Shown: positions 6,512 to 56,997 of the stretch, piece by piece | Layout: each line of letters starts with the position of its first letter | How positions within the stretch are numbered: position 1 is the first letter of the stretch | Source of the DNA: Candidatus Omnitrophota bacterium | Lineage (GTDB): Bacteria > Omnitrophota > Gorgyraeia > Gygaellales > Profunditerraquicolaceae | DNA: 64,000 nt | Direction of reading: 5' to 3' | NCBI GenBank assembly: GCA_041650835.1 | Contig: JBAZKL010000003.1 | Location: forward strand, 291,682-355,681 | Notes under the pieces: generated by a model | Databases searched by the model: none | Told to the model about the DNA's origin: nothing | The model's input: the letters and a program-made list of their open reading frames with translations, nothing else | Position numbers and translations under genes: made by a program

Positions 6512-6517
6512 AGTAAG

Positions 6518-7186
6518 GTGTCTATGTATATTATTATCGTAGGCGCGGGAAAAGTCGGGTATTTCTTAGCTAAGCGGCTGTGTTTAAGCAAACACACGAT
6601 CAGTATCATCGATAAAGACAAGCAGGTCTGTGAAGCGGTCGCGAAAGAATTAGAGGCGCTGGTCATTAACGGCGACGGCTGCGACCCGGTCGTCCTGGAA
6701 GAAGCAGGCGGCTCGCGCGCCGATGTGCTTGCTTCGGTGACCGGTGAAGATGAAGACAACCTGATCATCTGCCAGCTTGCCAAACAAAAATTCAGGGTCC
6801 ATCGCACCATCGCCCGCGTAAACAACCCCGATAATGAACATATTTTTTCTGAGCTGGGGATCGATATCCCCGTTGATTCGACCAAGATCATCGCCAAGAT
6901 AGTCGAGGAAGAAGTATCGTTCTCGGATTTCGTGAATTTGATGAGCTTTAAGCGGGGGAAGCTGGCGATCGTGCGCGTTGACCTCCCCGAAGATTCTCCG
7001 GTCATCAATAAAGAGATAAAAAATGTCCATCTCCCGCAGAACTCGGTCCTGGTTTCGGTTGTGCGCGGGGAGGAAGTCATTGTCCCCAAGGGGGACACCA
7101 TCCTTAAGCCGGGCGACGATGTCATTGCCATTACTTCTATCGGGAACGAGCCCCAACTTTTAAATTTACTGGTCGGGAGGTTATGA
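6518..7186 (+). CDS. Second Trk/Ktr NAD-binding regulatory subunit paralog
   Basis: IIVGAGKVG Rossmann motif plus RCK_C; tandem with the first TrkA, as in KtrA/TrkA pairs. Confidence 0.75.
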   Translation: MSMYIIIVGAGKVGYFLAKRLCLSKHTISIIDKDKQVCEAVAKELEALVINGDGCDPVVLEEAGGSRADVLASVTGEDEDNLIICQLAKQKFRVHRTIARVNNPDNEHIFSELGIDIPVDSTKIIAKIVEEEVSFSDFVNLMSFKRGKLAIVRVDLPEDSPVINKEIKNVHLPQNSVLVSVVRGEEVIVPKGDTILKPGDDVIAITSIGNEPQLLNLLVGRL

Positions 7187-7187
7187 G

Positions 7188-7307
7188 ATGAAGATAGCGC
7201 CTCTCATGAACACGATTGCCGGTATTGCCGTTGAGGTCATGTACGCGGCATCCATTATCCTTACAGCGTTTATAACCTGCCTTATTTTAACGTCTATAAA
7301 AATATGA
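7188..7307 (+). CDS. Putative 39-aa hydrophobic micro-protein between trkA and trkH
   Basis: ATG one nt after the trkA stop; translation MKIAPLMNTIAGIAVEVMYAASIILTAFITCLILTSIKI is a single predicted TM helix. Its stop overlaps the trkH ATG (ATATGA). It is below the 60-aa cutoff of the ORF track. Confidence 0.3.
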   Translation: MKIAPLMNTIAGIAVEVMYAASIILTAFITCLILTSIKI

Positions 7308-8806
7308 TCCTGCGGCCGCATGTAGATGATGTCAAAATAATCGGGTATTATTTAGGCAGGATCATTCTTGGCCTGGGGCTGACAATGGTCGTTCCGATCA
7401 TTCTGGGCCTTTTTCTGGGAGAAGTTAACCCGGTGCTCGATTTTGTTATCGGCCTTGAGGTCACGATGATCTTCGGTTTATTGCTGACCAAGATCTGCTC
7501 GACCGATAAAGAAATGGGCTGGATGCACGGGATGATCGTCGTGTCTCTCTCGTGGCTGGCGGCAACGCTGGCAGGCGCTTTACCGCTGGTCTTAAGCGGC
7601 CATTGGAGCTCCTACCTTGATGCCTGTTTTGACGCTATGTCGGGCTTCGCGACAACCGGATTGACGCTGGTAGAGAACCTGGACCATTTGTCTTATACCC
7701 ATAATCTTTGGCGGCATTTGATCATGTTCATCGGCGGGCAAGGTATTGTTATTGTTGCCCTGTCGTTCCTGGTCAAAGGAGGCAGTGGCGCTTTAAAGAT
7801 GTATTTCGGGGAAGGCCGCGATGAAAAGATCATGCCGAACGTTATTAATACCAGCCGTTTTATCTGGCTGGTCAGTATCGTTTTTCTGGTTTTAGGCACG
7901 CTCGCTTTGGGGCTTGTCAGCCTCTTGAACGGAATGAAGCCGTTCAACAGCTTTTTTCACGGCGCCTGTATTTTTATGGCGGCCTTTGACACCGGCGGCT
8001 TTGCCCCGCAATCGCAAAACGTACTGTATTATCACAGCTTGCCGTATGAGATCATAACCGTCATTATTATGATACTGGGCGCGATCAATTTTAAGCTCCA
8101 TTATCATGTCTGGATGGGCAACCGTAAAGAGATCATAAAAAATATAGAGACCATCACTTTGTTTGTCACCGTCTTTATTACTTTTTTCGTGACCGCCGCG
8201 GGGCTGGCGCAAACCGGCGTTTATCCGAAAGCGCTCATGTTGTTGCGTAAAGGTTTTTATCAGTTGATCTCCGGCCATACCGGAACGGGGTACCAGACGC
8301 TTTATCCGTCGCAACTCATTAATGATTGGAACCATCTTTCGCTGGTAGCGCTTATTTGCGCCATGGGCCTGGGAGGCGCGGTTTGTTCGACCACCGGCGC
8401 GATCAAAATGCTGCGCGTCGGCGTTATTTTTAAGGCGCTCATCCAGGATATTAAACGGATCATGATGCCGGAAAAAGCCGTTGTTCTGCAAAAAATACAC
8501 CATATTAGAGGGATCTTTCTGGCCGATAAACAGGTGCGCGCGGTTTTCCTGATCACCCTGGCGTACCTTTTACTTTACGGCGCGGGCGCCATGGTCGGGA
8601 TGTGGTACGGGTATCCGTTCATAAATTCACTGTTCGAATCTACCTCCGCGGCGGCAAACGTCGGCCTGTCGTGCGGGGTGACGGCTGTCTCTATGCCTGC
8701 GGGGTTAAAGCTGACCTATATCGCGCAGATGTGGGCAGGCAGGCTTGAATTCATGTCGATATTTACGCTGCTCGGTTTTTTTGTCGCCGCGGTGAAAGGC
8801 AAGTAA
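7304..8806 (+). CDS. trkH: Trk/Ktr potassium transporter membrane subunit
   Basis: Polytopic membrane protein with repeated GxxTxG-like selectivity-filter regions (GFATTGLT), TrkH/KtrB family. Confidence 0.8.
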   Translation: MILRPHVDDVKIIGYYLGRIILGLGLTMVVPIILGLFLGEVNPVLDFVIGLEVTMIFGLLLTKICSTDKEMGWMHGMIVVSLSWLAATLAGALPLVLSGHWSSYLDACFDAMSGFATTGLTLVENLDHLSYTHNLWRHLIMFIGGQGIVIVALSFLVKGGSGALKMYFGEGRDEKIMPNVINTSRFIWLVSIVFLVLGTLALGLVSLLNGMKPFNSFFHGACIFMAAFDTGGFAPQSQNVLYYHSLPYEIITVIIMILGAINFKLHYHVWMGNRKEIIKNIETITLFVTVFITFFVTAAGLAQTGVYPKALMLLRKGFYQLISGHTGTGYQTLYPSQLINDWNHLSLVALICAMGLGGAVCSTTGAIKMLRVGVIFKALIQDIKRIMMPEKAVVLQKIHHIRGIFLADKQVRAVFLITLAYLLLYGAGAMVGMWYGYPFINSLFESTSAAANVGLSCGVTAVSMPAGLKLTYIAQMWAGRLEFMSIFTLLGFFVAAVKGK

Positions 8807-23090: not shown

Positions 23091-23128
23091 TAAGGTGACT
23101 GTCACGTTTTTTGTGACTGTCACCTTAG
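23091..23128 (+). terminator. Double-palindrome hairpin TAAGGTGACTGTCACG-TTTTTT-GTGACTGTCACCTTA (GGTGAC-N-GTCACC family)
   Basis: Inverted repeat with a T-rich loop, and each arm is itself a palindrome. Family members also at 23364-23386, 27319-27358, 27654-27693, 34455-34490 and 34990-35024. Confidence 0.5.
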
Positions 23129-23347: not shown

Positions 23348-23414
23348 AAAGTCTCAAGTCGAAGCTCAGGTGACTGTCACCTGAGCTGTGCGACCTGTGA
23401 CCGGTGACTGTGCT

Positions 23415-27276: not shown

Positions 27277-27318
27277 GGTTGTAGATACCAGGCTTCGCTA
27301 TTCTCTGTAATTGTTTAA

Positions 27319-27365
27319 AGCAAGGTGACTGTCACGCTGTTTGTGATTGTCACCTTGCTTTTTTT
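27319..27365 (+). terminator. Rho-independent terminator GCAAGGTGACTGTCAC-GCTGTTT-GTGATTGTCACCTTGC + T7
   Basis: 16-bp stem of the GGTGAC-N-GTCACC family followed by a run of 7 T; it terminates the gltX and lipoprotein transcript. Confidence 0.6.
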
Positions 27366-27397
27366 AGAGTAGTTCATTTTTATATAGCTGCGCGCGA

Positions 27398-27650
27398 GCA
27401 AAGTCTAAAGTATAAAGTCTAAATATCAAAGGAAATTCAAAGATTAAAGATCAAATTTTAAATTTCCTACCTGCCGGCAGGAAGAATCAAAGCCATGTCA
27501 TTCCCGCGAGCCCGCAAAAGCTTTAGTGGCGGGCGAAAGCGGGAATCCAAAGAAATGCAAGAATAAAGGTTCAATTTTAAAATTTAGCCTTAAGCCTTAA
27601 ATCTTCCTTTGTTATTTATACTTTAGACTTTAAAATTAACCACATCATAT
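27398..27650. repeat. MITE-like imperfect palindromic element, copy 3, with about 90-bp internal insertion
   Basis: Arms match copies 1 and 2 (CAAAGGAAATTCAAAG...CCTTAAATCTTCCTTTGTTATTTATACTTTAGACTTTAAAAT). Centre contains CCTGCCGGCAGG plus an extra hairpin TGTCATTCCCGCGAGCCCGC...GCGGGCGAAAGCGGGAAT. Confidence 0.5.
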
Positions 27651-28014
27651 CAAAGCAAGGTGACTGTCACGCTTTTTGTGACTGTCACCTTGCTTGCCCT
27701 AAAATAACTCTTAAATGATACCATGAAAGTGCTATAATACGCATATGTGACACAGGGGGGACAATGAAGCTGGACTTGGTCAATTTTTAGGCAATCTTCT
27801 ATGCAGGTAGGGGGTTGCCGTTTTTGTTATGATGATTAAGTGATGTGTTACCCGAATTCCCCCATGCTGCCGAGATGGGCATATAATGAGATTTATATCG
27901 CTTGTAGGGATGGCTTGTTCTGTCCCCACAAATGGAAAAGGGACTACTCTGGGTTTAGGAAAATATGACTGTAACCCAATAATAAAAGATTAAATTTCTC
28001 AAAAAGGTGGAACT

Positions 28015-29052
28015 ATGAATGAAAAATGTCCTAATTGTGGTAATCCATTTGAAGGTAATAACCTACAAAAATGTTTAAAATGTGGCATTGATATTTTACA
28101 ATATACTCGAGAGAAATTAGAAGAAATGGAAAATGAGAAAGAATTATTAGTAAATAATGAAAGGCGGATAGCGAATAATATTTTTCAGAAAACTTGGAAT
28201 AAGTTAATCAAGGTGATATGGTTTTGGATTGGTGTTATTGTAGTTTTATGGGGGTTTGCAGTTGGGCTTAGTTTAAGAGAAATCTATAAAAATGTAGTAA
28301 ATGTTACTAAGAATCAAATTATAGAACTTATAACTAAACAATTTGAAGAGCCTCGCATAAGACAAACTTTAACTGAGGTAGCTAATACTGAAGCCGAAGA
28401 TATTCTTGCAAATCAAGTTCGACCAGAAATAGATAGTTTTAAAGAAGGAATAAACAAAGAATTAGATTCAGTTAAACGATTTTCAGAGGATTTAAAAACA
28501 AAATATACAATTGATTATAACACTTTTAATCTTGAAGTTGCTAAATTAAAAGACCGAAACAGGCTAATAGAATTGGGGGATATGGTTATTGCAAACAGAG
28601 ATGTGGCTGCTTATAAAGAATTGGAGCGCATTGCTAAAGATTCTGTAAAACCAGAATTGATGTCGGCGGCAGTGTCAGAAATAAAGCGAGTTAAGGTATT
28701 TTTTGCGACAATGACTAGTGTGAAAGGGGCGTCTATTTCATATAAAGGTCCCCTGGGGAGTGAATTAAAAGATAATGATATGACTAGGGATAGACTTATT
28801 TTTAATTTAAAGAATGATAATTGGTTAATTAGGGTAAAAGCAGCTCAATTGCTTCAGGGTAAAAAAGAAAAAAGTTCCGCAGAAGCCCTTTTAGAAAGTA
28901 TGAATAATGATCCTGATATGGAAGTAAGAAAAGAAGCTTTGGAATCATTTGATGCGATAACAGGGCACATAAGCAATGATGTCTTTGGTTTTGAAGCCGC
29001 GAATGAATGGTGGACTCAAAATAAGTTCGAGGTTGATAAAAAATTAAAATAA
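28015..29052 (+). CDS. Hypothetical protein: N-terminal zinc ribbon, one TM helix, C-terminal HEAT-like repeats
   Basis: CPNCGNPFEGNNLQKCLKCG zinc ribbon, a hydrophobic segment (VIWFWIGVIVVLWGFAVGL), and C-terminal LIRVKAAQLL / EVRKEALESF HEAT-like units. AT-rich compared with the flanking core genes. Confidence 0.45.
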   Translation: MNEKCPNCGNPFEGNNLQKCLKCGIDILQYTREKLEEMENEKELLVNNERRIANNIFQKTWNKLIKVIWFWIGVIVVLWGFAVGLSLREIYKNVVNVTKNQIIELITKQFEEPRIRQTLTEVANTEAEDILANQVRPEIDSFKEGINKELDSVKRFSEDLKTKYTIDYNTFNLEVAKLKDRNRLIELGDMVIANRDVAAYKELERIAKDSVKPELMSAAVSEIKRVKVFFATMTSVKGASISYKGPLGSELKDNDMTRDRLIFNLKNDNWLIRVKAAQLLQGKKEKSSAEALLESMNNDPDMEVRKEALESFDAITGHISNDVFGFEAANEWWTQNKFEVDKKLK

Positions 29053-29188
29053 TTTAAGAAGACAGGAGAGTTCTTACTTCTTTTGAATTAAGCTGGTTTT
29101 AGAATAAGAGTAGAGTTGTAGAAAAAGTAAATTAAAACATTAATTTGGTTAACCCTTGATGTTAATTTTTACTTGACAAGGTTAATGT

Positions 29189-29521
29189 ATGGATATATAC
29201 TTTAGTAGCAATAAAGATATGAGAATTTTTAATTCGGATAGAGAACTGCAAAAGAAATATGGTCATCTTTCGAAAAAGATTCAGCAAAGATTAGTAGAGT
29301 TGAGAGCGGTTAATTTTTTAGCTGATATTTCTGATTCACCTCCTCCAAGGCGTCATAAATTGGTTAATGATCGTGAAGGTCAATGGGCTGTTGATCTTAA
29401 TGGAAACAAACGATTGATTTTTGAACCAAGCAATGATCCAATTCCTAAAACTGAAACTGGGGCAATTGATTTAACTAAGGTTACCGAAATAACTATTATC
29501 GAAGTAGCGGATTATCATTAA
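29189..29521 (+). CDS. higB: HigB-family (RelE/ParE superfamily) toxin
   Basis: LVNDREGQWAVDLNGNKRLIFEP...VADYH resembles the HigB 'plasmid maintenance system killer' family (C-terminal DYH); the partner HTH gene follows 3 nt downstream. Confidence 0.6.
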   Translation: MDIYFSSNKDMRIFNSDRELQKKYGHLSKKIQQRLVELRAVNFLADISDSPPPRRHKLVNDREGQWAVDLNGNKRLIFEPSNDPIPKTETGAIDLTKVTEITIIEVADYH

Positions 29522-29523
29522 TT

Positions 29524-30627
29524 ATGACGGATAAATCGAAACCTTTCAAATATAGCCCTGATTATGCTGTTCCTCCCGGTGTTACTATTAGTGAATTACT
29601 TAATCATTTAGGAATGACTCAGGTTGAACTAGCCGATAGAACGGGTCGGCCAGAGAAAACAATAAGCGATATAGTAAATGGTAAACAAGGAGTAACTCCG
29701 GAAACTGCGTTACAGTTTGAGCGAGTACTTGGTATGTCAGCAAGCTTTTGGAATAATCTTGAAAAAAATTATCGAGAATCTTTAGTTCGTATTGAAGAGG
29801 TTAAAGCTTTAGAAAAACAAATTAATTGGCTAGAAAACTTTCCAATTGAAAGCATTATTAAAAATGGATGGATGCAGAAACATGATAATGCAGTGGCTCA
29901 ATTGCAAGAGTTGTTATCTTTTATGGGAGTTGCATCACCGAAGGAACTGAGCGTTAGTTGTTCTTCCGCGATTTTCCGAAAATCGAAGAAGATTCAAACA
30001 GATCCTTGGACGCTTTGTGCATGGCTTAGAAAGGGAGAGTTAGAGGCACAATCGGTTGAGTGTAAACCCTATGATAAAAATAAATTTAAGGAATCCTTAT
30101 ATAAAATTCGGGAAATGACAATTACTCCTGATACTCCATCAATTTTACCTCATTGGGGAAAGCTTTGTGCAGAATCTGGAGTGGCGTTAGTTATCATTCA
30201 AGAATTGCCTAAATTAAAAGTCAATGGGGCCACCCGTTGGTTAAAAGATAAGGCAGTAATTCAGCTCTCCCTTTTAAATAAATATGAAGATATTTTATGG
30301 TTTTCTTTTTTTCATGAAGCAGCACATATCTTGTTGCATGGAAGAAAGGATGTTTTTATTGAGGATAGAAATAAATTTGATCAAAATGACATGGAGAAAG
30401 AAGCGGATCAATTTGCTGAAGACTTTCTTGTCCCTCGTAACGAGTACAATGAATTTATATTAAAAGACGATTTTAACCATTCTACCGTAAATAATTTTGC
30501 AAAAAAGATAGGTGTTGGTCCGGGTATTGTAGTAGGAAGGCTTCAGCATGAAGGACTAATTAAATATAACGAACTTGCTAGTTTTAAACCTCGACTTTGC
30601 TGGAAACAACCCTCCAAGAATAACTAA
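29524..30627 (+). CDS. HigA-like HTH antitoxin fused to ImmA/IrrE-family HExxH metallopeptidase domain
   Basis: N-terminal XRE HTH (ISELLNHLGMTQVELADRTGRPEKTISDIVNG) and a C-terminal region with an HEAAH zinc-peptidase motif (FFHEAAHILLHG), COG2856-like. Confidence 0.6.
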   Translation: MTDKSKPFKYSPDYAVPPGVTISELLNHLGMTQVELADRTGRPEKTISDIVNGKQGVTPETALQFERVLGMSASFWNNLEKNYRESLVRIEEVKALEKQINWLENFPIESIIKNGWMQKHDNAVAQLQELLSFMGVASPKELSVSCSSAIFRKSKKIQTDPWTLCAWLRKGELEAQSVECKPYDKNKFKESLYKIREMTITPDTPSILPHWGKLCAESGVALVIIQELPKLKVNGATRWLKDKAVIQLSLLNKYEDILWFSFFHEAAHILLHGRKDVFIEDRNKFDQNDMEKEADQFAEDFLVPRNEYNEFILKDDFNHSTVNNFAKKIGVGPGIVVGRLQHEGLIKYNELASFKPRLCWKQPSKNN

Positions 30628-31043
30628 CAAAATAAGAAATTAAAAGATAACAAGACGTTTTCTATAACTATCTTAGAAAGACGGTGACTGCTTACATTCA
30701 AGTTTCTAATGCAACAATTTTAGTAATATGGAGTTCCGGGGACACATTACTTAATTCAAAAAGCAGATTCCCGCTAAAAGCATGCGGGAATGACAAATAG
30801 GAGTGAAATGGGGGACGTATTCGGTTCTCGATAACCGAACACCGAGCACCGATAACCCGGAAGCGGTGACAGTTACTTTGTGGACAGGCATTTTAGTGGG
30901 CTTTTAATATTGACATAAGGTAAATAAAAGGTTATGCTTTGATGAATAATCTAGTCAATTGTTCGGATTTCTATGCGTAGTAAATTTGGAGGTATACGAA
31001 ATGTAAGCGTATACCTTTTTTTATTTTAAGGAGGATACAAATT

Positions 31044-34355: not shown

Positions 34356-34520
34356 TTCGAGTTATCCTAATTCCGGGAATGGTGACAGTCACTTTTGGGG
34401 ACAGGCATTTTGGTGAGCGATAACCGACAACCGAGTACCGATAACCCGAACACGGTGACAGTCACAAAAAACGTGACAGTCACCGTTTTCTTGGATAAAT
34501 CATAGACGTTTTATTATTTC

Positions 34521-34919: not shown

Positions 34920-35169
34920 ATCAATCCCGCCGCAAGAACGGTGACAGTCACTTTTGGGGACAGGCATTTTGGTGAGCGATACGAAAACGGTGACAGTCAC
35001 AAATTACGTGACAGTCACCGTTTTCTCAGGTATAATTAAAATTCGATTCCACGAGTATATCTCGCCAGTTAGTATTAGTAAATTTGACATATTACCCTGT
35101 CCCTCGTCGCCGACGATGTTGAATGAGAGCGACTCGGGATTGGCAAAAGAGATAAGTAAAATTAGGTTT

Positions 35170-35241
35170 TGCCCTGTCGTCTAATCGGTAGGACTTCAGA
35201 TTCTGGATCTGACTATCATGGTTCGATTCCATGCGGGGCAG
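35170..35241 (+). tRNA. tRNA-Gln (anticodon CTG)
   Basis: U1-A72 acceptor (TGCCCTG/CGGGGCA), D-arm GTCTAATCGGTAGGAC, anticodon loop TTCTGGA, T-arm ATGGTTCGATTCCAT, discriminator G. Confidence 0.8.
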
Positions 35242-35345
35242 TACTTCGACTCGCCCCTTCGGGGCTCGCTCAGTACAAGTTTTTGTGCTTGAGCCTTTGA
35301 TGCGCGTGTGGTTCTCCTCCTTCGCCCTTTAATAGACAAATTATA
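35236..35345 (+). repeat. About 110-bp direct repeat, copy 1 (starts inside the tRNA-Gln 3' end); copy 2 at 36231..36340
   Basis: GGGCAGTACTTCGACTCGCCCCTTCGGGGCTCGCTCAGTACAAGT...TTCGCCCTTTAATAGACAAATTATA present twice at about 95% identity, bracketing the 35423-36130 toxin-antitoxin pair. Confidence 0.7.
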
Positions 35346-35422: not shown

Positions 35423-35773
35423 TTGGCGAACATTAGCTGCTTTTATTATGTAACCGAATCCGGGAAATCGGCGGTAAGAGATTTTATTGATTCTTTGGAT
35501 GCAAGCAGCCAGAGAAAATTCTTCTTTGCCAAAAGCTTGCTTGAGGAATTTGGGCATAAGTTACCTCAACCACACGCTAAATATATAGGAGATGAGATAT
35601 TTGAGTTGAGGTTTAAAGGGCAAGAAGGCAATATCAGGGCCTTATATTTTTTCTTTCATCAAGACAAGGTCTTATTTACCAACGGATTTATTAAAAAGAC
35701 CGCTAAAGTGCCGGAAAAAGAGAAGAAGCTGGCTATTGAGAGAAGAAAAGCGTTTCTTGAAAGACATAAATAA
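35423..35773 (+). CDS. Gp49-like/HigB-type type II toxin (RelE/ParE superfamily)
   Basis: IRALYFFFHQDKVLFTNGFIKKTAKVP matches the phage Gp49-like (COG4679) toxin signature. A TTGACA-17-TATGCT promoter lies at about 35372-35400. Confidence 0.65.
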   Translation: MANISCFYYVTESGKSAVRDFIDSLDASSQRKFFFAKSLLEEFGHKLPQPHAKYIGDEIFELRFKGQEGNIRALYFFFHQDKVLFTNGFIKKTAKVPEKEKKLAIERRKAFLERHK

Positions 35774-35785
35774 GGAAGGTGCGCT

Positions 35786-36130
35786 ATGAATATGGAAAGG
35801 GTTGATGAACACTTAAAAGAGAAATTAAAGGATCCGTATTTTAAAGAACTTTATGAACTCCAAGAGCAGAAACTTGATATCGTAAAGCGGGTTATTGACT
35901 ATAGGGTTAAAAATAAGCTGACTCAAGGTCAATTAGCTAAAAAAGCGAAGGTTACCCAACAGCACATCTCTAAGATTGAAAACGGAGATTTCAGCAGTAT
36001 AGTAACCTTGGAGAAGATTTTGCTGTTTATCGGCTATACCGTGAAAATCCAAGCTGTTCCCCTTAGCAATAAAGTCAGGAATAGCATTGAGCGTCTTGTT
36101 CGGGCTAAGCATGGACTTCAGTTTGCTTAA
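35786..36130 (+). CDS. XRE-family HTH antitoxin (HigA-like)
   Basis: LTQGQLAKKAKVTQQHISKIENGDFS HTH; 13 nt downstream of the toxin gene. Confidence 0.65.
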   Translation: MNMERVDEHLKEKLKDPYFKELYELQEQKLDIVKRVIDYRVKNKLTQGQLAKKAKVTQQHISKIENGDFSSIVTLEKILLFIGYTVKIQAVPLSNKVRNSIERLVRAKHGLQFA

Positions 36131-46449: not shown

Positions 46450-48003
46450 ATGCTCACACAAAATATGAAAGCGCTTATAAATTCGCTTTGGGATAAATTC
46501 TGGAGCGGCGGTATTTCAAATCCTCTAACTGCAATTGAGCAAATTTCCTATCTCTTGTTCATGCGTAGGCTGGATGATATGGATACTAAGTTTAAAAGTG
46601 ACTCCGATTTTACTGGTGAGAAATATCAATCTATATTTGAAGGCAAGTTTGCGATCCCAAATACCAAGGAATCGGTTGATAAGGCTACTCTTCGCTGGAG
46701 CTATTTTAAGCAGATGGAAGGTGGTGAAATGCTTAGACACGTCCAGTTGAAGGTGTTTCCATTTGTGAAACAGGTCAATGGTAGAAATACGGTTTTTACA
46801 AAGCAGATGGAGGATGCGGTATTTATTATTCCTAAAGCATCTCTTCTAGTTGAGGCGGTCAGTATTATTGATAAGCTCTACGAAGAAATTGAGATCGGAA
46901 TGCGGGGAGGGCAAACATTTCATGATACCCAAGGCGATATGTATGAATTCCTTCTGGCAGAAATTGCCACAGCTGGGAAGAATGGTCAATTTCGTACGCC
47001 ACGGCATATTATTCAGATGATGTGTGAGCTTGTGGATCCTAAAATGTTAGAGCTTGTCTGCGACCCAGCGTGTGGTACTGGTGGTTTCTTGCTTGGTGCT
47101 TACCAACATATTTTAACTCACTATACGAGTAAAAATCGTCTGCAGAAAGACGAGAATGGCTTTATGCGGGGCACTTTGGCCGATAAACTCACAGATGAGC
47201 GATTATGGAAACAACTGAAAGAGGAAACATTTTATGGTTATGATTTTGATTCAACCATGGTTCGTATAGGTTTGATGAATCTTATTCTTCACGGAATTTC
47301 CTATCCAAATATTAATCGTAGGGACACGCTTTCTAAAAACTACAATGAGGATAATAAATATCATGTTATTTTGGCTAATCCTCCATTTAAAGGGAGCATT
47401 GATGAGGGCGATATAAATGAAAGTTTATCTTTAGATACAACAAAGACAGAGCTTCTTTTTGTTAATCGCATTATTAATTCATTACGGATTGGTGGTCGTG
47501 CTGGCGTTATTGTGCCGGATGGTGTTCTTTTTGGCTCAAGCAGAGCACATAGAGATTTACGTAGGATGTTAATTGATAAGTGTGAACTTCAAGGTATTAT
47601 TTCTATGCCAAGTGGAGTTTTTAAGCCGTACGCCGGAGTTAGTACTGCGGTTTTAGTTTTTGTTAAAGGGGGAACGACAGAAAAGGTGTGGTTTTACGAT
47701 ATGCAGGCAGATGGGTATTCGCTTGATGACAAACGTGAAAAGATTGAGACGACAGATCTGCCGACTATTGTAGAAGAATGGGGAAATCGGCATAAAGGAA
47801 AGGACAATGATCGTAAAGCCAAACATTTTTTTGTACCCGTTAAAGAAATTATCAACAAAGATTATGATCTAAGTATTAATCGCTATAAAGAAATCGACTA
47901 TCAGCCAGTCAAATATGAAAAACCAGAGAAAATTCTATTAAAGATCGAGAAAATAGAATGTGACATACAAAAAGGTATTAAGGACTTAAAGGATTTATTG
48001 TAA
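46450..48003 (+). CDS. hsdM: Type I restriction-modification N6-adenine DNA methyltransferase subunit
   Basis: HsdM N-terminal domain, AdoMet motif I (DPACGTGGF) and catalytic NPPF. Confidence 0.9.
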   Translation: MLTQNMKALINSLWDKFWSGGISNPLTAIEQISYLLFMRRLDDMDTKFKSDSDFTGEKYQSIFEGKFAIPNTKESVDKATLRWSYFKQMEGGEMLRHVQLKVFPFVKQVNGRNTVFTKQMEDAVFIIPKASLLVEAVSIIDKLYEEIEIGMRGGQTFHDTQGDMYEFLLAEIATAGKNGQFRTPRHIIQMMCELVDPKMLELVCDPACGTGGFLLGAYQHILTHYTSKNRLQKDENGFMRGTLADKLTDERLWKQLKEETFYGYDFDSTMVRIGLMNLILHGISYPNINRRDTLSKNYNEDNKYHVILANPPFKGSIDEGDINESLSLDTTKTELLFVNRIINSLRIGGRAGVIVPDGVLFGSSRAHRDLRRMLIDKCELQGIISMPSGVFKPYAGVSTAVLVFVKGGTTEKVWFYDMQADGYSLDDKREKIETTDLPTIVEEWGNRHKGKDNDRKAKHFFVPVKEIINKDYDLSINRYKEIDYQPVKYEKPEKILLKIEKIECDIQKGIKDLKDLL

Positions 48004-49157
48004 TGAATAAGCAGGTGAATATTATCGATGCTGTCGAAATAATAAATAATCGAGTAAGGCCATTTAAGGGGCAGCGAAGATATTTAGCAACCGGTGACTT
48101 GGCTGGTGATGAAATTAATGAAACTGCTTTTGTGGATTATGAATCTAGGCCTAGCCGAGCAGATTTATTGGTAAATGAGGGCGAGATTATAGTTGCTCGC
48201 ATGCAAGCTACTAATAAAGTTCTCTTGATTGATGATACGACGAAAGATCTTATTGTTTCTACAGGATTTTTAACGCTTGCTCCGAAAAAAGGCTTTGATA
48301 TAAGATATCTTGCTCATTATTTTCGATCTGATATATTTCAACGCCAAAAAGACAGATATTGTTCTGGCGCAACGCAAAAAGCCATCAATAACGGGGCTTT
48401 TGAAAAATTATGTGTTCCAAGTTATCCGCTAGATGAGCAAAGAAAGATCGCTAAAATTTTAAGCCATGTTGAATTATTACGCCAGAAACGCAAGCAATCA
48501 TTTTGGTTTCTTAATGATTTTCTTCATGCAACATTCTTGCACATGTTTGGGGATCCTATACAAAATCCTAATAATCTGGCACAGAAGAAAATCGGAGAGC
48601 TCGGAAAAGTTATTACTGGCAACACTCCCCCTCGCCATAAGAAGGAATATTATGGAAATTATATTGAATGGATTAAATCAGATAATATAAATACACCACA
48701 ATTTACACTTACGAGAGCAGAGGAATATTTATCGAAAAAGGGTGCAGGAGTCGGTAGGGTTGCTCCTAAAGGATCAGTGTTGGTGACATGTATAGCCGGT
48801 ACGCCCGATTGTATTGGTAATATTGCAATGGCAGACCGTGAAGTTGCGTTTAATCAACAAATTAATGCATTTGTCCCGGGAGGAGAAATCTCCCAAACAA
48901 TATTTTTTGCCCAGGTGTTATTTTGCAAGAAGCTGATTCAACAAGCATCTACAAACAGCATGAAGGGTCTTGTATCAAAAGGCAAATTTTCTGAGATCAA
49001 AATTATCGTTCCTCCCAAAAAACAGCAAAATCGATTCGAAGCAATATTTGATAGGGTTGTGATCTTACGTTTACAGCAGCAAAGAAGCGCATTAGAGCTG
49101 GATAATCATTTTAATGTTTTAATACAAAAAGTATTTGGAGAAGCTGAAAATGTTTAA
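48003..49157 (+). CDS. hsdS: Type I restriction-modification specificity subunit
   Basis: Two target-recognition domains separated by conserved coiled-coil spacers; start overlaps the hsdM stop. Confidence 0.8.
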   Translation: MNKQVNIIDAVEIINNRVRPFKGQRRYLATGDLAGDEINETAFVDYESRPSRADLLVNEGEIIVARMQATNKVLLIDDTTKDLIVSTGFLTLAPKKGFDIRYLAHYFRSDIFQRQKDRYCSGATQKAINNGAFEKLCVPSYPLDEQRKIAKILSHVELLRQKRKQSFWFLNDFLHATFLHMFGDPIQNPNNLAQKKIGELGKVITGNTPPRHKKEYYGNYIEWIKSDNINTPQFTLTRAEEYLSKKGAGVGRVAPKGSVLVTCIAGTPDCIGNIAMADREVAFNQQINAFVPGGEISQTIFFAQVLFCKKLIQQASTNSMKGLVSKGKFSEIKIIVPPKKQQNRFEAIFDRVVILRLQQQRSALELDNHFNVLIQKVFGEAENV

Positions 49158-49812
49158 GCGGTATTTTGAGTATAATCAAGCATTATTAAATGCTCAATAT
49201 GGAGTTTCTGAAATTATAGAGCACCTGCAAACACGAGGCGAAGTAAGGGAAGATTTTATTCGCGATTTGATTATTAAGAGAAAACGTAATTTATTGGTTG
49301 GGACAGGATTCCTATCTGATGGTCGAGCTCAAAGTCCACAATGCGATATTATTATTGCACGAGATAATGCTCCTGTTATTTCTTTTGGCCAAAAAATTTG
49401 TTTAAATGTTTCTGATTGTAAAATTGTTGTTGAAGTTAAGAGTAATCTAACGAGTCAAGATATAAAGGTGTGTAACGAGAAAGCAGCTCAGATAAAAAGA
49501 ATGGCTGGTGAGTCAAAACCATTGTATGGTATTTTCTGTTATAAATTTAATTTTAAGAAAAATACTTTATTGCGGAGTTTTCGATTTGTTTATGATCCTG
49601 AGATTATGGAATATAACGAAAATCCGGCACTTCCTATGGTTTATCCAAATATTGATTTTATAATTTCAATAAGTGATGAAGAAGAATATCTGGAAAACGA
49701 AGATATTAAAAAGCAGTTTTTCGTAATAAAAAATGAAGTGACAGGAGGATATTCTTTCTTTAATGATTATCCTCCCATTAGGTACTTTTGGCGTTTGATA
49801 GATGGATTATAA
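49135..49812 (+). CDS. Hypothetical PD-(D/E)xK nuclease-like protein overlapping hsdS 3' end
   Basis: CDIIIARD...KIVVEVKSN gives a D...(E)VK restriction-endonuclease-fold motif. Overlaps the hsdS stop by 23 nt, suggesting co-transcription. Confidence 0.4.
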   Translation: MEKLKMFKRYFEYNQALLNAQYGVSEIIEHLQTRGEVREDFIRDLIIKRKRNLLVGTGFLSDGRAQSPQCDIIIARDNAPVISFGQKICLNVSDCKIVVEVKSNLTSQDIKVCNEKAAQIKRMAGESKPLYGIFCYKFNFKKNTLLRSFRFVYDPEIMEYNENPALPMVYPNIDFIISISDEEEYLENEDIKKQFFVIKNEVTGGYSFFNDYPPIRYFWRLIDGL

Positions 49813-49997
49813 AGAAATAGACATTTAGCTAAGGTAATGACGTGGTTAAGTAAATAAAATAATAATGGAAAACGGTATGCCTGAAGCGAAACAAATTATT
49901 GTTGAAGACGAAACTCTAAATGCGGTTACAAGCGACAACCTTTTTGAGAAAATCAATATTCCCCTCAGACGGATAAGTAATAAAAGGAGGTTTGAAC

Positions 49998-50879
49998 ATG
50001 GCTGAGCAGATAGAACAGAGAAAGAAAAGATCTCAGCAAATTGTTTTTCATCTGTTCCGATATCAAATTCTGCCTACGACGCAAACAATCCAATTGCGAT
50101 TTGATTCGCCAGTTAAGAATCTGGAAGATTTAAAGGCCAAAAAGAATAACTTTTTTTCTCAGGCGTTGACGGGCATGAAAAGAATTAATTATTCAAGAAC
50201 AGAGTTAACGCATAAAGTGAGTGAAATCGATAAAGATTTTTATCTTATAAAATTAGCTGCAAAAAGAAGTCTTAAGCGGTCGACACGCGATTTTAAGGAA
50301 GAGAAGATTGAAAATTGGCCTGCCACGAATATTATTATCAATAACCATCCGGCTGTTCAGAAAGCCATTATTCAGTTTAACCAAAAGGTTTTTAATGACA
50401 CAAAGAATATTGCTGATATTTTGCAGGATAGTTTAAACGATATGCTTAAAGAGTACCAACTTCATGTAATTTTTGAGAAAATTTTTGATGAAGTTAAATT
50501 TTGGCAAGTCGTCAATCTTTATAAGAACAGGATTATTCAGGCTGAATTCGAGCTAATTTCTCCTAATTTGGCGAATATTTCAAAATCCCTACAATTTGAT
50601 TTACAAGCGTTAAATCGTTCGACTAATACACAAAAAACAAAACTGCAGCTTAACAGTGATAAGGAAGCGATACTGACTCTGTCGCAAGAAGATCCCCTGG
50701 TTTCCGGCTTAGTAGATTATGCATCTCAAGGGGGAGGCAAAATTAACCTTAAGGTTCGGGGATTAAATAAAAAAATACATACTTCTGATAAAGCCACGGA
50801 AATAACAATTGATGAGATGGTATTTAATAACGCGGATCCAAAGGATATTCTAAAGATAATTGGTGGGATTATCAAATGA
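49998..50879 (+). CDS. Hypothetical soluble protein (gene A of a two-gene module)
   Basis: ATG at 49998 preceded by AAAGGAGG; no recognisable domain. Its stop overlaps the start of the downstream membrane-protein gene (ATGATGG). Confidence 0.45.
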   Translation: MAEQIEQRKKRSQQIVFHLFRYQILPTTQTIQLRFDSPVKNLEDLKAKKNNFFSQALTGMKRINYSRTELTHKVSEIDKDFYLIKLAAKRSLKRSTRDFKEEKIENWPATNIIINNHPAVQKAIIQFNQKVFNDTKNIADILQDSLNDMLKEYQLHVIFEKIFDEVKFWQVVNLYKNRIIQAEFELISPNLANISKSLQFDLQALNRSTNTQKTKLQLNSDKEAILTLSQEDPLVSGLVDYASQGGGKINLKVRGLNKKIHTSDKATEITIDEMVFNNADPKDILKIIGGIIK

Positions 50880-51313
50880 TGGACGTCATAAAAAATATAT
50901 CGGTTTCGGTGTTACTAGGAATTATTATTAACTCGTTATCTTCCTGGATGGGAAGCCATTTTTTATTAAAGTTTTTGGATTGCAATTTGATTACTTTACT
51001 CGTTGCCTTGATGGCGATTAATACTACTACGATGAGCGTCATGATGACTAAGATGAGCGAGATTAAAGAGCGACACAAAATTGATTTTCCAAAGACTATT
51101 CGTGAGATGACGGCTTCGATTTATGAACAAATATCGTTAATATGTATTGCGGTGGCTTTACAGATTATTAGCGATAGTCCGAAGATGAAACAATTGTGGC
51201 CAAATCCCGAGTTTATTATTTCAAGTTTTTTAGTGGCAGTTTTTGTATATGCAATGTTGATATTGTTTGATACTGCAAAAGGCATATTTGTTTTATTGGA
51301 GAATGAAAAGTAG
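50876..51313 (+). CDS. Small polytopic membrane protein (gene B of a two-gene module)
   Basis: 145 aa with about 4 predicted TM helices; translationally coupled to the upstream gene. Confidence 0.45.
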   Translation: MMDVIKNISVSVLLGIIINSLSSWMGSHFLLKFLDCNLITLLVALMAINTTTMSVMMTKMSEIKERHKIDFPKTIREMTASIYEQISLICIAVALQIISDSPKMKQLWPNPEFIISSFLVAVFVYAMLILFDTAKGIFVLLENEK

Positions 51314-51392
51314 CCAAGATATCAGAATTACGGAAGACTTTAAATAAGAGACGTTCTTCAAGAATCGTTTCGACGGTTAGAATAATAATTAA

Positions 51393-53132
51393 ATGAAGAT
51401 AAGATCACTAAAAATCCATAATTTCCGTTCAATTCTGGATTCACCCGAGATAATTTTTAACGACTTCTCATTATTAGTTGGAGCAAATAATGTCGGGAAG
51501 TCTAACTTAATCGATGTTTTAAGAATTTTATATGATGATGAAAAATTTGATAGTAAACGAGATTTTCCCAAGGTTTCTTTAAAACCAACCGATAATGAAA
51601 GTTGGGTTGATGTTAAATATATCCTTTCTGAAGAAGAATATAAGAATTTGCCTGATTATGCTAAAAAATTTACAAATAAATTAAGAATCAGAAAATATTT
51701 TAAATCTGACAATTCAGAACAGTTCAAATCTGGTCAGAGCAATATCTTTGCTTATGAAGAAGAAGGAGTGATATCTAAGAACCTGTTTCATGGAGCCAAG
51801 AATGTTTCTGAAGCAAAACTTGGACGGATTATATTTATTCCATCAGTTAACAAAACAGAAGATGTATTAAAAACTTCTGGTCCCTCTCCTTTGAGGCAGA
51901 TAGCTACATTTGTTTTTGAAAAAGTTGCCAAGAAAAGTCCTGCTTTTAATAATCTTGAAACGGCGTTTTCGAGTTTTGAGAGTGATTTTTCTACTGAATC
52001 TTCTTCAGATGGTTTTTCTATCAAAGATCTTATTGTCGATGTGAATAAGCATCTGGAGGAATGGCAGATATCATTCGGCATAAATATTAAAAAAATTAAG
52101 ATTGATGATATCATCAAAAACTTATTTGAGCATAATTGGAAAGATGATAACCTTGACGGTGAGGTTATAGACATAAATCAATATGGTCAGGGGTTTCAGC
52201 GCCACATAATCTATACACTTATTAAGTTATCAGCAAAGTATGTAGATAAAAGAACATCAAGCAAAAAAGAATTTATACCAGAATTTACGCTGATTCTATT
52301 TGAGGAACCAGAAGCATTTTTGCATCCGGCTCAGCAGGAAATATTACATGCGGGTTTGAAAGAAATCACTAGCGATGGGGAAGAACAAACCCAGGTTTTA
52401 ATTTCGACTCATTCCCCCATTTTTGTATCTAGAAACATTGATGATTTAACTTCGGTAATTAGATTGCAAAAGGAAAAAGGAAATACTAGGATTTCACAAA
52501 TTACCGAAATTAATGAGGATATTTTGTTCGGTGAAAATGCAAAATTGCTAGATTTTTTAAAAACAAAGTTAACTGAAACGTCAACTCCCGCAGATGTAAA
52601 ATCAGAAATTAAAAATATTGTTAATGGAACCGATGATTCTCTTAAGCTAGAAGAAGAATCAATGCGATATTTTTTATGGTTGAATTCAGAAAGGTGCTCA
52701 TTATTTTTTGCTGATTTTGTAATTATTTGTGAGGGAGCATCAGAAAAAATATTTGTTGAGTATTTGTTTAAATCAAAATGGGAAGATTTACGAAAGAAAC
52801 GTATTTATTTACTTGACGCAGGAGGTAAATACAATATTCATAGGTATATGAATTTATTTGAATTGTTATGTATTTCCCACAGCATTTTGTTGGATTCTGA
52901 TGGTGATAGGAAACATCAGAAATATATAAATGAATTTATTGATAGTAATAAGCGTCCCCAAACTAGATCGATTCATAAGTTTAATCCTGATTTTGAGAAT
53001 TTTCTAACTATTACTCCTGCTAAGAGGCCCGATAAAAAGCCTTTAAATGTATTTCTACATTTTCGAAATGGAAAAATTACTGATGCTAAGATAAATGAGC
53101 TGAAAGAAATTATTCAAAGAATTAGTACTTAG
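51393..53132 (+). CDS. OLD-family ATP-dependent endonuclease (ABC-type ATPase + Toprim)
   Basis: Walker A GANNVGKSN, Walker B/D-loop LILFEEPEAFLHP and a C-terminal Toprim with the EGxSE-type motif (VIICEGASEKIFVE). Confidence 0.75.
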   Translation: MKIRSLKIHNFRSILDSPEIIFNDFSLLVGANNVGKSNLIDVLRILYDDEKFDSKRDFPKVSLKPTDNESWVDVKYILSEEEYKNLPDYAKKFTNKLRIRKYFKSDNSEQFKSGQSNIFAYEEEGVISKNLFHGAKNVSEAKLGRIIFIPSVNKTEDVLKTSGPSPLRQIATFVFEKVAKKSPAFNNLETAFSSFESDFSTESSSDGFSIKDLIVDVNKHLEEWQISFGINIKKIKIDDIIKNLFEHNWKDDNLDGEVIDINQYGQGFQRHIIYTLIKLSAKYVDKRTSSKKEFIPEFTLILFEEPEAFLHPAQQEILHAGLKEITSDGEEQTQVLISTHSPIFVSRNIDDLTSVIRLQKEKGNTRISQITEINEDILFGENAKLLDFLKTKLTETSTPADVKSEIKNIVNGTDDSLKLEEESMRYFLWLNSERCSLFFADFVIICEGASEKIFVEYLFKSKWEDLRKKRIYLLDAGGKYNIHRYMNLFELLCISHSILLDSDGDRKHQKYINEFIDSNKRPQTRSIHKFNPDFENFLTITPAKRPDKKPLNVFLHFRNGKITDAKINELKEIIQRIST

Positions 53133-53144
53133 CGCAAAAACGAT

Positions 53145-54272
53145 ATGAAGTTAGTTCATTTCTCAGATACGCATTTAGGTTTTTCTGATTACAATAAGGT
53201 TGATCCAGAAACAGGTATCAACTTAAGAGAAGCCGATGTATATCATGCCTTTGCGCGGGTTATTGATTACATTATCAATAACCCGCCAGATATAGTAATT
53301 CACTCTGGTGATCTTTTTGATACTCATAGGCCTTCCAATAGAGCTATCAATATTGCTTTAAAAGAAATTGCAAAAATATCTCAAAAACAAATCCCCCTTG
53401 TAATGATTTCGGGTAATCATTCAACGCCGCGCGTAAAAACCTCCGGTTCTATTTTCGAAATATTCGAAATATTCGATAATGTATATCCAGTATATCAATC
53501 AAAGTATAAAGAGATTATCATAAAAGATGCAGCATTGCATTGCGTACCACATATGGCTACAGAAGAGGAGTTAAGGAAGGTTTTTGATAATCTCAAGCCA
53601 AACAGTAAGGTTAAGTATAATATAATAATTGCTCACATGGGAGTGACAGCAGATGTACAGTATAAGATGGGTGAGTTCAACGAATTGATTATTCCCTACG
53701 GCGTCATTAAGAAAAAAAACAATTTTGATTACATAGCTCTTGGCCATTATCATAAAAACCTACTCCTAGCAGACAATTGTTATTATTCAGGTTCAACGGA
53801 ACGTTTTAGTTTTAATGAGGTAGGGCAGGATAAAGGATTTATCGAAGTAAATCTATCTCAGAAGAAAACGGTGTTTATTCCTCTAAAAGTACGAGAAATG
53901 ATAGCTTTGGAATCAATTGATTGTCGAGATCTCAATATAAATGAGATTGTTAAGAAAGTGGAGCAACTCATTACTGGAAAAACCCTGGGGAGTATACTTC
54001 AGGTTACTTTTGATAATATAAAAAAACACCAATACGCCGAGTTAAACTTTCAAAAACTAAGAGACTTAACTAAAGATGCTGTTCATCTGAAAATAATCTG
54101 CAATTGGATGAGTGAAAAAGGGAAGGAAAGCACTAATACCGCGATAGGTACGCTTTCGGCAGAATTTGAGAGCTTTATCGAACACCAAGATATCAAAGAT
54201 TTAGATAAGAAAAAACTCAAAGAATTAGGAATAAATTATCTTTCGATTACTCAGGGGGCAGAGGAAGAATAA
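53145..54272 (+). CDS. sbcD: SbcD/Mre11-family nuclease (calcineurin-like phosphoesterase)
   Basis: Phosphoesterase motifs HFSDTHLG, GDLFD, GNHS and the later His motifs; 12 nt after the OLD gene. Confidence 0.8.
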   Translation: MKLVHFSDTHLGFSDYNKVDPETGINLREADVYHAFARVIDYIINNPPDIVIHSGDLFDTHRPSNRAINIALKEIAKISQKQIPLVMISGNHSTPRVKTSGSIFEIFEIFDNVYPVYQSKYKEIIIKDAALHCVPHMATEEELRKVFDNLKPNSKVKYNIIIAHMGVTADVQYKMGEFNELIIPYGVIKKKNNFDYIALGHYHKNLLLADNCYYSGSTERFSFNEVGQDKGFIEVNLSQKKTVFIPLKVREMIALESIDCRDLNINEIVKKVEQLITGKTLGSILQVTFDNIKKHQYAELNFQKLRDLTKDAVHLKIICNWMSEKGKESTNTAIGTLSAEFESFIEHQDIKDLDKKKLKELGINYLSITQGAEEE

Positions 54273-56678: not shown

Positions 56679-56997
56679 GAAAGAACCTGATATACAACAA
56701 GGATATGAAAGAATTCATGGTGCTGGTCAAAATTACTTCAAAGGAAAGCCATCTAAATCTAGCCTTGTTGATGAATATTATAAATCATCGGAGTCGGATA
56801 ACAAGGGAGATGAAAAACTTTTAAAAATCGCTAAGTTATTTTTGGATAAATATAATACGGAAGACTTCCCCGAAAGTGTTAAAAATTTAGCCAAACTTAT
56901 AAAATAATTCAGCATAGAAAAATCCTCCTCACTTAGAGCGGTCCATCATAAAATAAAAGAAATAGAGACAAAATACACAAATATCGGAAAGGGAGAT

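Follow-up and report, generated by a model that had tools for sequence, protein, structure and literature searches.

A two-gene module that is intact, mobile and autonomous was identified in a stretch of 64,000 nucleotides of contig JBAZKL010000003.1 from a Candidatus Omnitrophota bacterium (GCA_041650835.1; the whole stretch is referred to as the window). It belongs to the class in which a RelE/HigB toxin gene is combined with a fusion of an Xre domain and a COG2856 peptidase. The first gene (29189-29521) encodes a 110-aa protein ending in VADYH, the second (29524-30627) a 367-aa protein, and both open reading frames (ORFs) are as delimited in an earlier reading of the window from its letters, called here the original prediction. 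The two genes lie on the same strand, the small one first, and are separated by 2 nt (TAA, tt, ATG). Their products almost certainly comprise a HigB-fold protein, a HigA-type helix-turn-helix (HTH) and an M78 zinc peptidase; profile searches, structure models and the conservation among 83 homologues agree with the original prediction in assigning the toxin to the HigB type, the HTH to the HigA type and the zinc peptidase, which is intact, to the ImmA/IrrE type. Regarding the function, the HigA module would neutralise HigB until a signal causes the fusion protein to cleave itself at a Phe-Arg (FR) motif in an inter-domain loop, whereby HigB would be released and growth arrested. This mechanism, for which the analogy with HigBA, VapBC52, CapP/CapH and IrrE/DdrO is the basis, is given a little more credence than doubt.

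The domains of the 367-aa protein were recognised by profile and structure searches. The NCBIfam model TIGR02607 (antidote_HigA) was passed with 58.6 bits (cut-off 47.7) at residues 16-83, Pfam HTH_3 was found above threshold at residues 22-74, and Foldseek matched the N-terminus to the HigA structures 3TRB, 3CEC, 6CHV and 4MCT with target-normalised template modelling (TM) scores of 0.8-0.86. The C-terminal part was assigned to Pfam PF06114 (Peptidase_M78; 39.4 bits, cut-off 22, E=6.3e-10, residues 259-340), matched the PADLOC capP model (E=2.9e-12) and was similar in structure to CapP (7T5T), a peptidase associated with systems that signal against phages by means of cyclic oligonucleotides (CBASS). 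The AlphaFold model of the protein is full-length, with a predicted local distance difference test (pLDDT) score of 86.5, and no GAF domain was seen in its secondary structure.

Several residues of the peptidase are invariant. When 83 homologues from many phyla were aligned, the metal-binding and catalytic residues H264, E265 and H268 of the HExxH motif and the downstream glutamate E291 were conserved in all sequences (83/83), and about 40 further positions of the fusion were conserved at ≥97%. Since E291 is conserved together with H264, E265 and H268, the HExxH motif is not a chance occurrence; the original prediction had considered it a possible refutation that metal ligands beyond this motif might be missing, which is not the case. 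The spacing between H268 and E291 is 23 residues, compared to 25 in VapB52 and 27 in both CapP and IrrE. Judged by these residues, the peptidase looks functional. Three further residues of the peptidase domain, C215 (99%), C180 (86%) and H272 (78/83), are conserved with no obvious role.

With the 110-aa protein, the Pfam model PF05015 (HigB-like_toxin) remained below threshold (20.2 bits, gathering score 27, E=8e-4); the same family is precomputed for two close homologues (P0126 and P0129) and is weak in another. A profile of 13 related sequences matched GraT (6F8S_B, E=4.4e-6) and HigB of P. vulgaris (4MCT_B, E=7e-4), and PHROG 3066, annotated as 'toxin of TA system', was matched by the protein with E=3e-10. 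The best Foldseek matches of the AlphaFold model (pLDDT 91.8) were ribosome-bound HigB (4W4G and 4YPB, target-normalised TM 0.72), with YoeB and RelE next in rank. For HigB of P. vulgaris, His54, Arg73, Asp90, Tyr91 and His92 are described as critical (PMC5027501). All five are present in the 110-aa protein, where they align with H56, R75, D108, Y109 and H110. Relative to the 92-aa HigB, the protein carries an insertion of about 18 aa (residues ~81-99), which is specific to the family and conserved in it.

Among 69 partner proteins from other genomes, H56 was kept in 66, R75 in 68 and H110 in all 69, and position 109 was occupied by Thr in 48 and by Tyr in 19. Because this position is mostly Thr, a C-terminal DYH is typical of the clade of the window protein, and D-T-H-x is the norm of the family. 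The 'killer' C-terminal signature read from VADYH in the original prediction is present, and its Asp-Tyr-His corresponds to catalytic residues of HigB. A pair identical to it has been deposited with a metagenome-assembled genome of Candidatus Omnitrophota; there the 367-aa protein is named 'HigA family addiction module antitoxin' by NCBI. The 110-aa HigB-fold protein is named 'killer suppression protein HigA', an antitoxin label and hence a wrong annotation.

The junction of the two domains of the fusion carries a candidate cleavage site. Only four segments of the model have pLDDT <50, among them the loop formed by residues 147-156 (the others being 1-9, 279-281 and 365-367). An aromatic residue ([F/Y]151) was found in 82/83 homologues and R152 in 80/83, followed by K, R or Q and by S154 (76/83); the pattern [FYLM]R[KRQ][ST] occurs in 71/83 sequences, and the net charge of the loop averages +1.3. 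M78 peptidases are known to cut at such positions: CapP cleaves CapH at F82|R83 (bioRxiv 10.64898/2026.05.16.725639), and IrrE cleaves DdrO, likewise in a loop, which is basic, at L106|R107 (PMC6868357). F151-R152 matches both sites, as well as the F75-R76 motif of VapB52, for which the description in the respective paper was used for comparison (VapB52 was found neither in the PDB sequence copy, searched with the single fusion sequence and with a 34-sequence profile, nor in the Foldseek listing). Since the loop bears the signature of an M78 substrate, at a place that by description corresponds to the FR motif of VapB52, autoproteolysis is predicted at F151|R152. The near-invariant [F/Y]151-R152 in the junction loop is a new observation of this study, from which, together with the analogous sites, we infer the cleavage.

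A 15-nt inverted repeat (TCTTCCGCGATTTTC / GAAAATCGAAGAAGA, 29962-29992, 87% complementary with 1 nt between the arms) is centred on the codons of F151-R152 and may be a matter of chance.

The fusion proteins form a large family. More than 6,500 matches were obtained among clusters at 90% identity, the best 120 of which are all about 360 aa long and contain HTH_3 and M78. At 50% identity, a scan of 1.84 billion representatives yielded at least 2,576 clusters (E up to 1e-30). The distribution of HigA-ImmA fusions, a point raised together with the original prediction, thus extends over many phyla and thousands of genomes. At least 461 fusion loci were found in a collection of genomes at species level, 80 of which were taken for an inspection of their surroundings; 78 of these had room upstream. 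In 77/78 of these genomic loci an ORF encoding a HigB-like protein (~111 aa) abuts or overlaps the fusion gene upstream, and the same holds for a HigB-like gene directly upstream of the fusion in 27/28 viral loci of IMG/VR. The higB-like and the fusion genes are almost always adjacent and translationally coupled. A clustering of all flanking ORFs of the 78 loci did not reveal any universal third gene.

Relatives were detected on 46 plasmids and in a few phages, and also in prophages. The immediate neighbours (n=139) include HsdM (5), Eco57I (4), NERD (3), Fic (2), PIN (2) and integrases (2), and are otherwise heterogeneous. Next to the closest relatives, genes were found for a type I restriction-modification system and GmrSD (L003), a reverse transcriptase and Fic (L116), and RmuC and Bro-N (L118). 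Between the window and the 83%-identical cassette in L003, homology at the DNA level extends from about 65-70 nt 5' of the first ATG to just past the second stop codon. Because it is confined to this span, the mobile unit is taken to comprise about 1.5 kb, that is, promoter/operator and the two genes. As a mobile unit, the cassette is exchanged among genomes, plasmids and prophages; its surroundings are unrelated from case to case, and restriction-modification genes are frequently next to it.

Two copies of the pair are located on a 7.9-kb contig of Spirochaetia (L069). They are inverted (477-1920 on the plus and 6102-7545 on the minus strand), lie about 4.2 kb apart and agree in ORF lengths and toxin E-values, an arrangement that recalls a composite element or a duplication in inverted orientation. 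A different context of an Xre-M78 fusion was encountered in Enterobacterales, namely in E. coli PCN033 (L087, 4819524-4822530) and on a plasmid of Pantoea (L084), with a match in 235/5,426 genomes of E. coli. A HigB partner is missing in both loci, where the fusion gene converges with genes that encode a hypothetical protein and a thymidylate synthase. L087 additionally has a MazG-like gene and a gene of the dGTPase family nearby. This context may represent another defence-related module. The loci were set aside for a comparison with the defence system PD-lambda-2, as their context is a different one, lacking a HigB partner and lying beside the thymidylate synthase gene.

The region upstream of the pair, where the homology with L003 begins, contains short elements that are retained in more distant relatives. 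Blocks of the type TTAAC, TGT.AA and CTT.A.AA persist in relatives with as little as 59% protein identity, and so do two GTTAAC-type palindromic hexamers and the palindrome CTTGACAAG. We infer these palindromes to be putative operators for the HigA domain. The best sigma-70-like match of the region is TTGACA-17-TATACT (11/12, 29173-29201), the -10 element of which lies inside codons 3-5 of the higB-like gene. It was rejected as the main promoter because it overlaps the start codon, and the resulting transcript would lose the conserved first beta-strand. The TTGACA at 29173 more likely belongs to the operator palindrome CTTGACAAG.

Pairs of this kind have been described before. Makarova, Wolf and Koonin reported in 2009 that a 'COG2856 Zn peptidase (fused to HTH)' is a recurrent partner of RelE and PIN toxins, and proposed a three-component toxin-antitoxin system with the Xre repressor/antitoxin as the substrate of the protease (PMC2701414). 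The architecture of the gene pair is the same as in the window; that study was purely computational, covered a few dozen loci, and contained neither the observation on the FR loop nor a distinction of HigB subfamilies. The three-module arrangement, which the original prediction had placed outside the well-characterised type II toxin-antitoxin systems, is consequently not novel: it was predicted in 2009, is annotated routinely by NCBI, occurs in thousands of genomes and has been tested experimentally in PD-lambda-2 and VapBC52.

VapBC52 of M. tuberculosis (Rv2514c-Rv2515c; Singh et al., NAR, June 2026) consists of a PIN toxin and an antitoxin in which Xre and an IrrE-type peptidase are combined (PMC13273310). 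Single-stranded DNA (ssDNA) activates the peptidase of VapB52, which removes its own toxin-binding N-domain at the conserved F75-R76 motif in the domain linker, so that the toxin is released (PMC13273310). C229 of VapB52 serves as a switch ligand on the zinc, and VapBC52 protects against mycobacteriophage (PMC13273310). The window locus has in common with it the two-gene layout of toxin-antitoxin type, and the fusion protein shares with VapB52 the N-terminal Xre HTH, the IrrE/CapP-like peptidase with HExxH and downstream Glu, and an aromatic-Arg motif in the linker; the link to phage defence is that of VapBC52. The toxins are different, a PIN-domain tRNase in VapBC52 and a protein of HigB fold in the window. 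Furthermore, VapB52 (415 aa) has an additional C-terminal four-helix domain occluding the active site of the toxin, compared to 367 aa for the fusion of the window, and its C229 'switch' is a fourth zinc ligand, whereas no Cys is conserved in this loop of the window family. Any Cys between HExxH and the Glu ligand was found in only 6/83 sequences, and there is none in the window protein.

With canonical HigBA systems (P. vulgaris Rts1 HigBA, P. putida GraTA) the locus shares the position of the toxin gene in front, the HigB fold, the His/Arg/Asp-Tyr-His residues and the HigA-type HTH. In contrast to these, the antitoxin-type protein of the window has about 270 extra residues with the zinc peptidase, and the toxin-type protein has the insertion of ~18 residues and the sub-threshold Pfam score. 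The set of M78 ligands is the same as in CapP/CapH, IrrE(PprI)/DdrO and ImmA/ImmR, which cut between a hydrophobic residue and Arg in a flexible basic loop of an Xre protein. These switches are activated by ssDNA or a zinc signal and regulate other genes (CBASS, DNA repair, ICEBs1), with no release of a toxin. In CapP and IrrE the peptidase is separate from the repressor and the order is peptidase-HTH-GAF, whereas in the window fusion the HTH precedes the peptidase, a GAF domain is lacking, and the protein is coupled to an RNase-type toxin.

The closest relative that is linked to HigB and has been tested experimentally is PD-lambda-2 from E. coli ECOR42 (Vassallo et al., Nat Microbiol, 2022), an anti-phage system in which a HigB-like protein and a HigA-peptidase fusion are joined by a third protein (PMC9519451). 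The fusion alone was unexpectedly toxic and was rescued by the HigB-like protein, and the third gene was needed against lambda-vir (PMC9519451). According to the supplement of that study, the Pfam families are PF09907 for component A, PF06114 for B and PF14350 (Beta_protein) for C (PMC9519451). The order of a HigB-like gene and a HigA-HTH/M78 fusion gene is the same as in the window, and so is the mobile, defence-island-like context. The PADLOC model PD-Lambda-2_B matched the 367-aa protein with E=2.5e-35 (120.5 bits, residues 26-344, model positions 68-377 of 402), and no PADLOC match was obtained for the 110-aa protein at E up to 1. Since the PADLOC models of A and C also miss a locus of an Achromobacter phage that looks like a three-gene system, the missing A match is only weakly informative. 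The small protein of the window is of the PF05015 type, unlike PD-lambda-2A (PF09907). Component C, located directly downstream in PD-lambda-2, does not flank the window pair, and among the loci examined a Beta_protein gene was found directly downstream in L079 and L080 only, so that PD-lambda-2-like trios appear as a rare elaboration of the two-gene core.

In the mechanism favoured here, the HigA module would, in the resting state, bind both HigB and the upstream GTTAAC-type operators, so that the RNase would be neutralised and the operon repressed. The built-in peptidase would be activated by a signal; candidates are ssDNA or DNA damage in the course of a phage infection, and zinc or redox stress. 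It would then cut the fusion itself, in cis or between protomers, at [F/Y]151|R152, and this cut would destabilise the neutralising complex. The freed HigB would cleave ribosome-bound mRNA and thus arrest growth in the manner of abortive infection or of a stress arrest. The idea of the original prediction that a protease-bearing antitoxin could inactivate itself on a signal is well founded, as this has been demonstrated for the analogue with a PIN toxin, VapBC52, and the loop of the family considered here carries the conserved [F/Y]-R motif.

Several points weigh against this mechanism. PD-lambda-2, the closest HigB-linked relative tested experimentally, has the opposite polarity, with a toxic fusion and a rescuing HigB-like protein. 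The equivalent of Tyr91 is mostly Thr in the family, and RNase activity would thus not be assured family-wide, although the copy in the window has Tyr. The 'cysteine switch' of CapP and VapB52 is missing from the equivalent loop in 77/83 sequences, and a GAF domain is lacking too. Finally, a cut at 151|152 leaves a complete HigA-like fragment (1-151), which might still neutralise HigB; release of the toxin would therefore not follow automatically from the cut.

The polarity of PD-lambda-2 also renders the division of roles in the original prediction, with the small protein as toxin and the long one as antitoxin, insecure. If it applied here, the fusion would be the growth-inhibiting effector, cleaving an essential protein of host or phage or over-repressing, and the HigB-like protein would be its inhibitor or a co-sensor; infection would disturb the complex and thereby free the peptidase. 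Such an inverted polarity, the main rival of the favoured mechanism, is judged unlikely, and is a serious alternative for the family. It is favoured by the match of the 367-aa protein to PD-Lambda-2_B over its whole length and by the complete conservation of the catalytic residues of the peptidase, while the catalytic Tyr of HigB is replaced by Thr in most partners. Moreover, L079 and L080, with the Beta_protein of the PD-lambda-2C type, are members of the same subfamily. On the other hand, component A of PD-lambda-2 represents another HigB family, and the small proteins of both the window and the Achromobacter phage match no PADLOC model. The window HigB has all five catalytic residues, and H56, R75 and H110 are near-invariant across the partners, which argues for a working RNase rather than a mere inhibitor. 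The third gene required for defence by PD-lambda-2 is absent at the window locus, and the polarity of the sister system VapBC52 is conventional.

A mutually inhibiting module with two effectors, in which HigB restrains the peptidase and the HigA domain restrains the RNase, is considered somewhat more doubtful. Restraint of the peptidase by HigB would explain the toxicity of the lone fusion in PD-lambda-2. Trigger and autoinhibition would in this case be unlike the logic of ssDNA, cysteine switch and GAF domain; the grounds for such a distinct device are the lack of a Cys switch and of GAF, the near-invariant C215 and H272 and the 18-residue insertion of the toxin.

The pair could also be a conventional HigBA system, the fused peptidase of which acts in trans on another Xre repressor and serves as a signal-responsive switch for neighbouring genes of an island, a prophage or a defence system. 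The stand-alone M78 peptidases that have been characterised all have a separate Xre repressor as their substrate, relatives often adjoin defence genes or sit in prophages, and this option was considered by Makarova et al. (PMC2701414). However, the neighbours differ in nearly every locus, and neither a second Xre gene nor any other partner is conserved. The conserved unit comprises the two genes and their own promoter only, and the substrate-like [F/Y]-R motif lies in the fusion itself. Because the neighbourhoods vary, a trans-acting regulator is disfavoured and regarded as improbable.

It is hardly credible that the peptidase is inactive and serves as an appendage for structure or dimerisation, or that the pair is a decaying remnant, which would leave a plain HigBA or no function at all: stand-alone COG2856 proteins of S. 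pneumoniae were not toxic upon overexpression and only the C-terminal two-thirds of the M78 model are covered in Pfam, but the four active-site residues and the ~40 further positions are conserved as described, the structural model of the fusion is full-length and confident, and both ORFs are undamaged and can be aligned with their homologues over the full length.

The pair is located in an AT-rich islet (Table 1). The GC content is 0.30-0.37 from about 27.3 to 31.0 kb, compared to a mean of 0.441 for the window, and the GC content at third codon positions (GC3) of the three islet genes is 0.22-0.27, compared to 0.58 for gltX and 0.49 for the S8 peptidase gene. The low GC content of the segment from 27.7 to 30.65 kb reported in the original prediction was confirmed; the islet is slightly wider than stated, composite, and not the only AT-rich stretch, since a larger one lies at 47-58 kb. 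A horizontal origin, also proposed there, is supported by the contrast in GC and GC3 and by the limitation of the L003 homology to the cassette. In the region of ~47000-58500, 1-kb windows have a GC content of 0.31-0.37 (mean 0.44), and this may be a bigger horizontally acquired island.

The genes flanking the pair encode a HEAT-repeat protein upstream and an S8 peptidase downstream, the latter 417 nt away. In the upstream protein (345 aa), a zinc ribbon at the N-terminus and HEAT repeats at the C-terminus are combined with a single transmembrane helix and a coiled-coil region. A search of 5.8 billion protein clusters yielded no more than six homologues, in varying contexts (transposase, SWI2/SNF2 helicase) and in no case beside a HigB pair, from which it follows that the islet is composite. 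Since it lies outside the cassette shared with L003 and its homologues never adjoin the pair, the gene was rejected as a third component. Neither a tRNA gene nor an integrase gene was found next to the islet, and a search of Rfam for 27.0-31.2 kb gave nothing meaningful above noise.

The sequence CAAGGTGACTGTCAC, present at both borders of the islet, was considered as a possible att-like repeat and rejected, as it is a genome-wide palindrome resembling repetitive extragenic palindromic (REP) elements. REP-like palindromes built on GTGACWGTCAC gave 21 matches with ≤3 mismatches (0.6 expected); they are intergenic and often form long terminator-like hairpins. A nested palindromic element of ~380 bp (27317-27695) is located just 3' of a small lipoprotein gene. 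Two 44-nt hairpins with 95% identity (27317-27360 and 27652-27695) bracket inverted arms of 65 nt (27401-27465 and 27573-27637), and a GC-rich hairpin (ATTCCCGC...GCGGGAAT, 27500-27546) forms the centre. The element looks like a miniature inverted-repeat transposable element, or a duplicated terminator with an insertion. A second hairpin with the ATTCCCGC/GCGGGAAT stem is found at 30767-30791; these are the only two in the window (0 expected), and they lie near both edges of the islet. About 5 kb downstream of the pair, just after a tRNA-Gln gene (35169-35242) and in another AT-rich patch, a second pair of the RelE/HigB superfamily is encoded, consisting of a toxin of the Pfam family Gp49 (~35423-35773) and an HTH_3 antitoxin (~35786-36130).

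Table 1. Positions of the gene pair, its predicted domains and motifs, and surrounding features in the window.
Feature	Position	Strand	Remarks
Composite AT-rich islet	27300-31000	.	Cassette and unrelated 345-aa gene; contrast in GC and GC3
345-aa zinc-ribbon/transmembrane/HEAT gene	28015-29052		Upstream neighbour; GC3 0.23
Conserved upstream region, putative promoter/operator	29124-29188	+	Homology with 83%-identical cassette L003 begins here
GGTTAACC	29147-29154	+	Upstream region
GTTAAT	29161-29166	+	Upstream region
Palindrome CTTGACAAG	29172-29180	+	Includes TTGACA
higB-like gene	29189-29521	+	110 aa, C-terminal VADYH; RelE/HigB fold, putative ribosome-dependent mRNA endonuclease
higA-M78 fusion gene	29524-30627	+	367 aa
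HigA-type Xre HTH domain	29557-29814	+	Residues 12-97; TIGR02607, Foldseek
Helical linker of fusion	residues 100-146	+	Domain order as suggested by the model
Flexible inter-domain loop	29962-29991	+	Residues 147-156; F151-R152-K-S, with F151-R152 at 29974-29979; predicted autoproteolytic site
M78 (ImmA/IrrE/CapP-type) zinc-peptidase domain	30004-30429	+	Residues ~161-302; PF06114, CapP fold, conservation
HEAAH motif	30313-30327	+	Residues 264-268 (H264, E265, H268)
Third metal ligand E291	30394-30396	+	In EKEADQFA; family form E-x-E-A-[ND]-x-F-A
C-terminal three-helix subdomain	30436-30549	+	Residues 305-342, after the peptidase core and followed by a short tail; secondary structure of the model
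REP-like palindromes	23091-23127, 23366-23384, 27321-27357, 27656-27692, 30866-30880, 34378-34487, 34937-35022		

The locus itself adds little: its class, predicted in 2009 and by now partly characterised, has thousands of copies. For the family, the two-gene form with a PF05015-type HigB and a HigA-M78 fusion is the majority form, and the three-gene layout of PD-lambda-2 is rare. The [F/Y]-R-[K/R]-S motif in the junction loop provides a precise and testable site for the predicted autoproteolysis. As the family has neither the cysteine switch of CapP and VapB52 nor the GAF domain of CapP, its off-state and its trigger are not explained by these known devices of autoinhibition and ssDNA sensing. 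Should the two effectors indeed inhibit each other, an abundant family would represent a distinct solution to signalling, in which the trigger might possibly be a phage protein. This abundant and simple two-gene version could serve to resolve the conflict between PD-lambda-2, in which the fusion is toxic, and VapBC52, in which it acts as the antitoxin.

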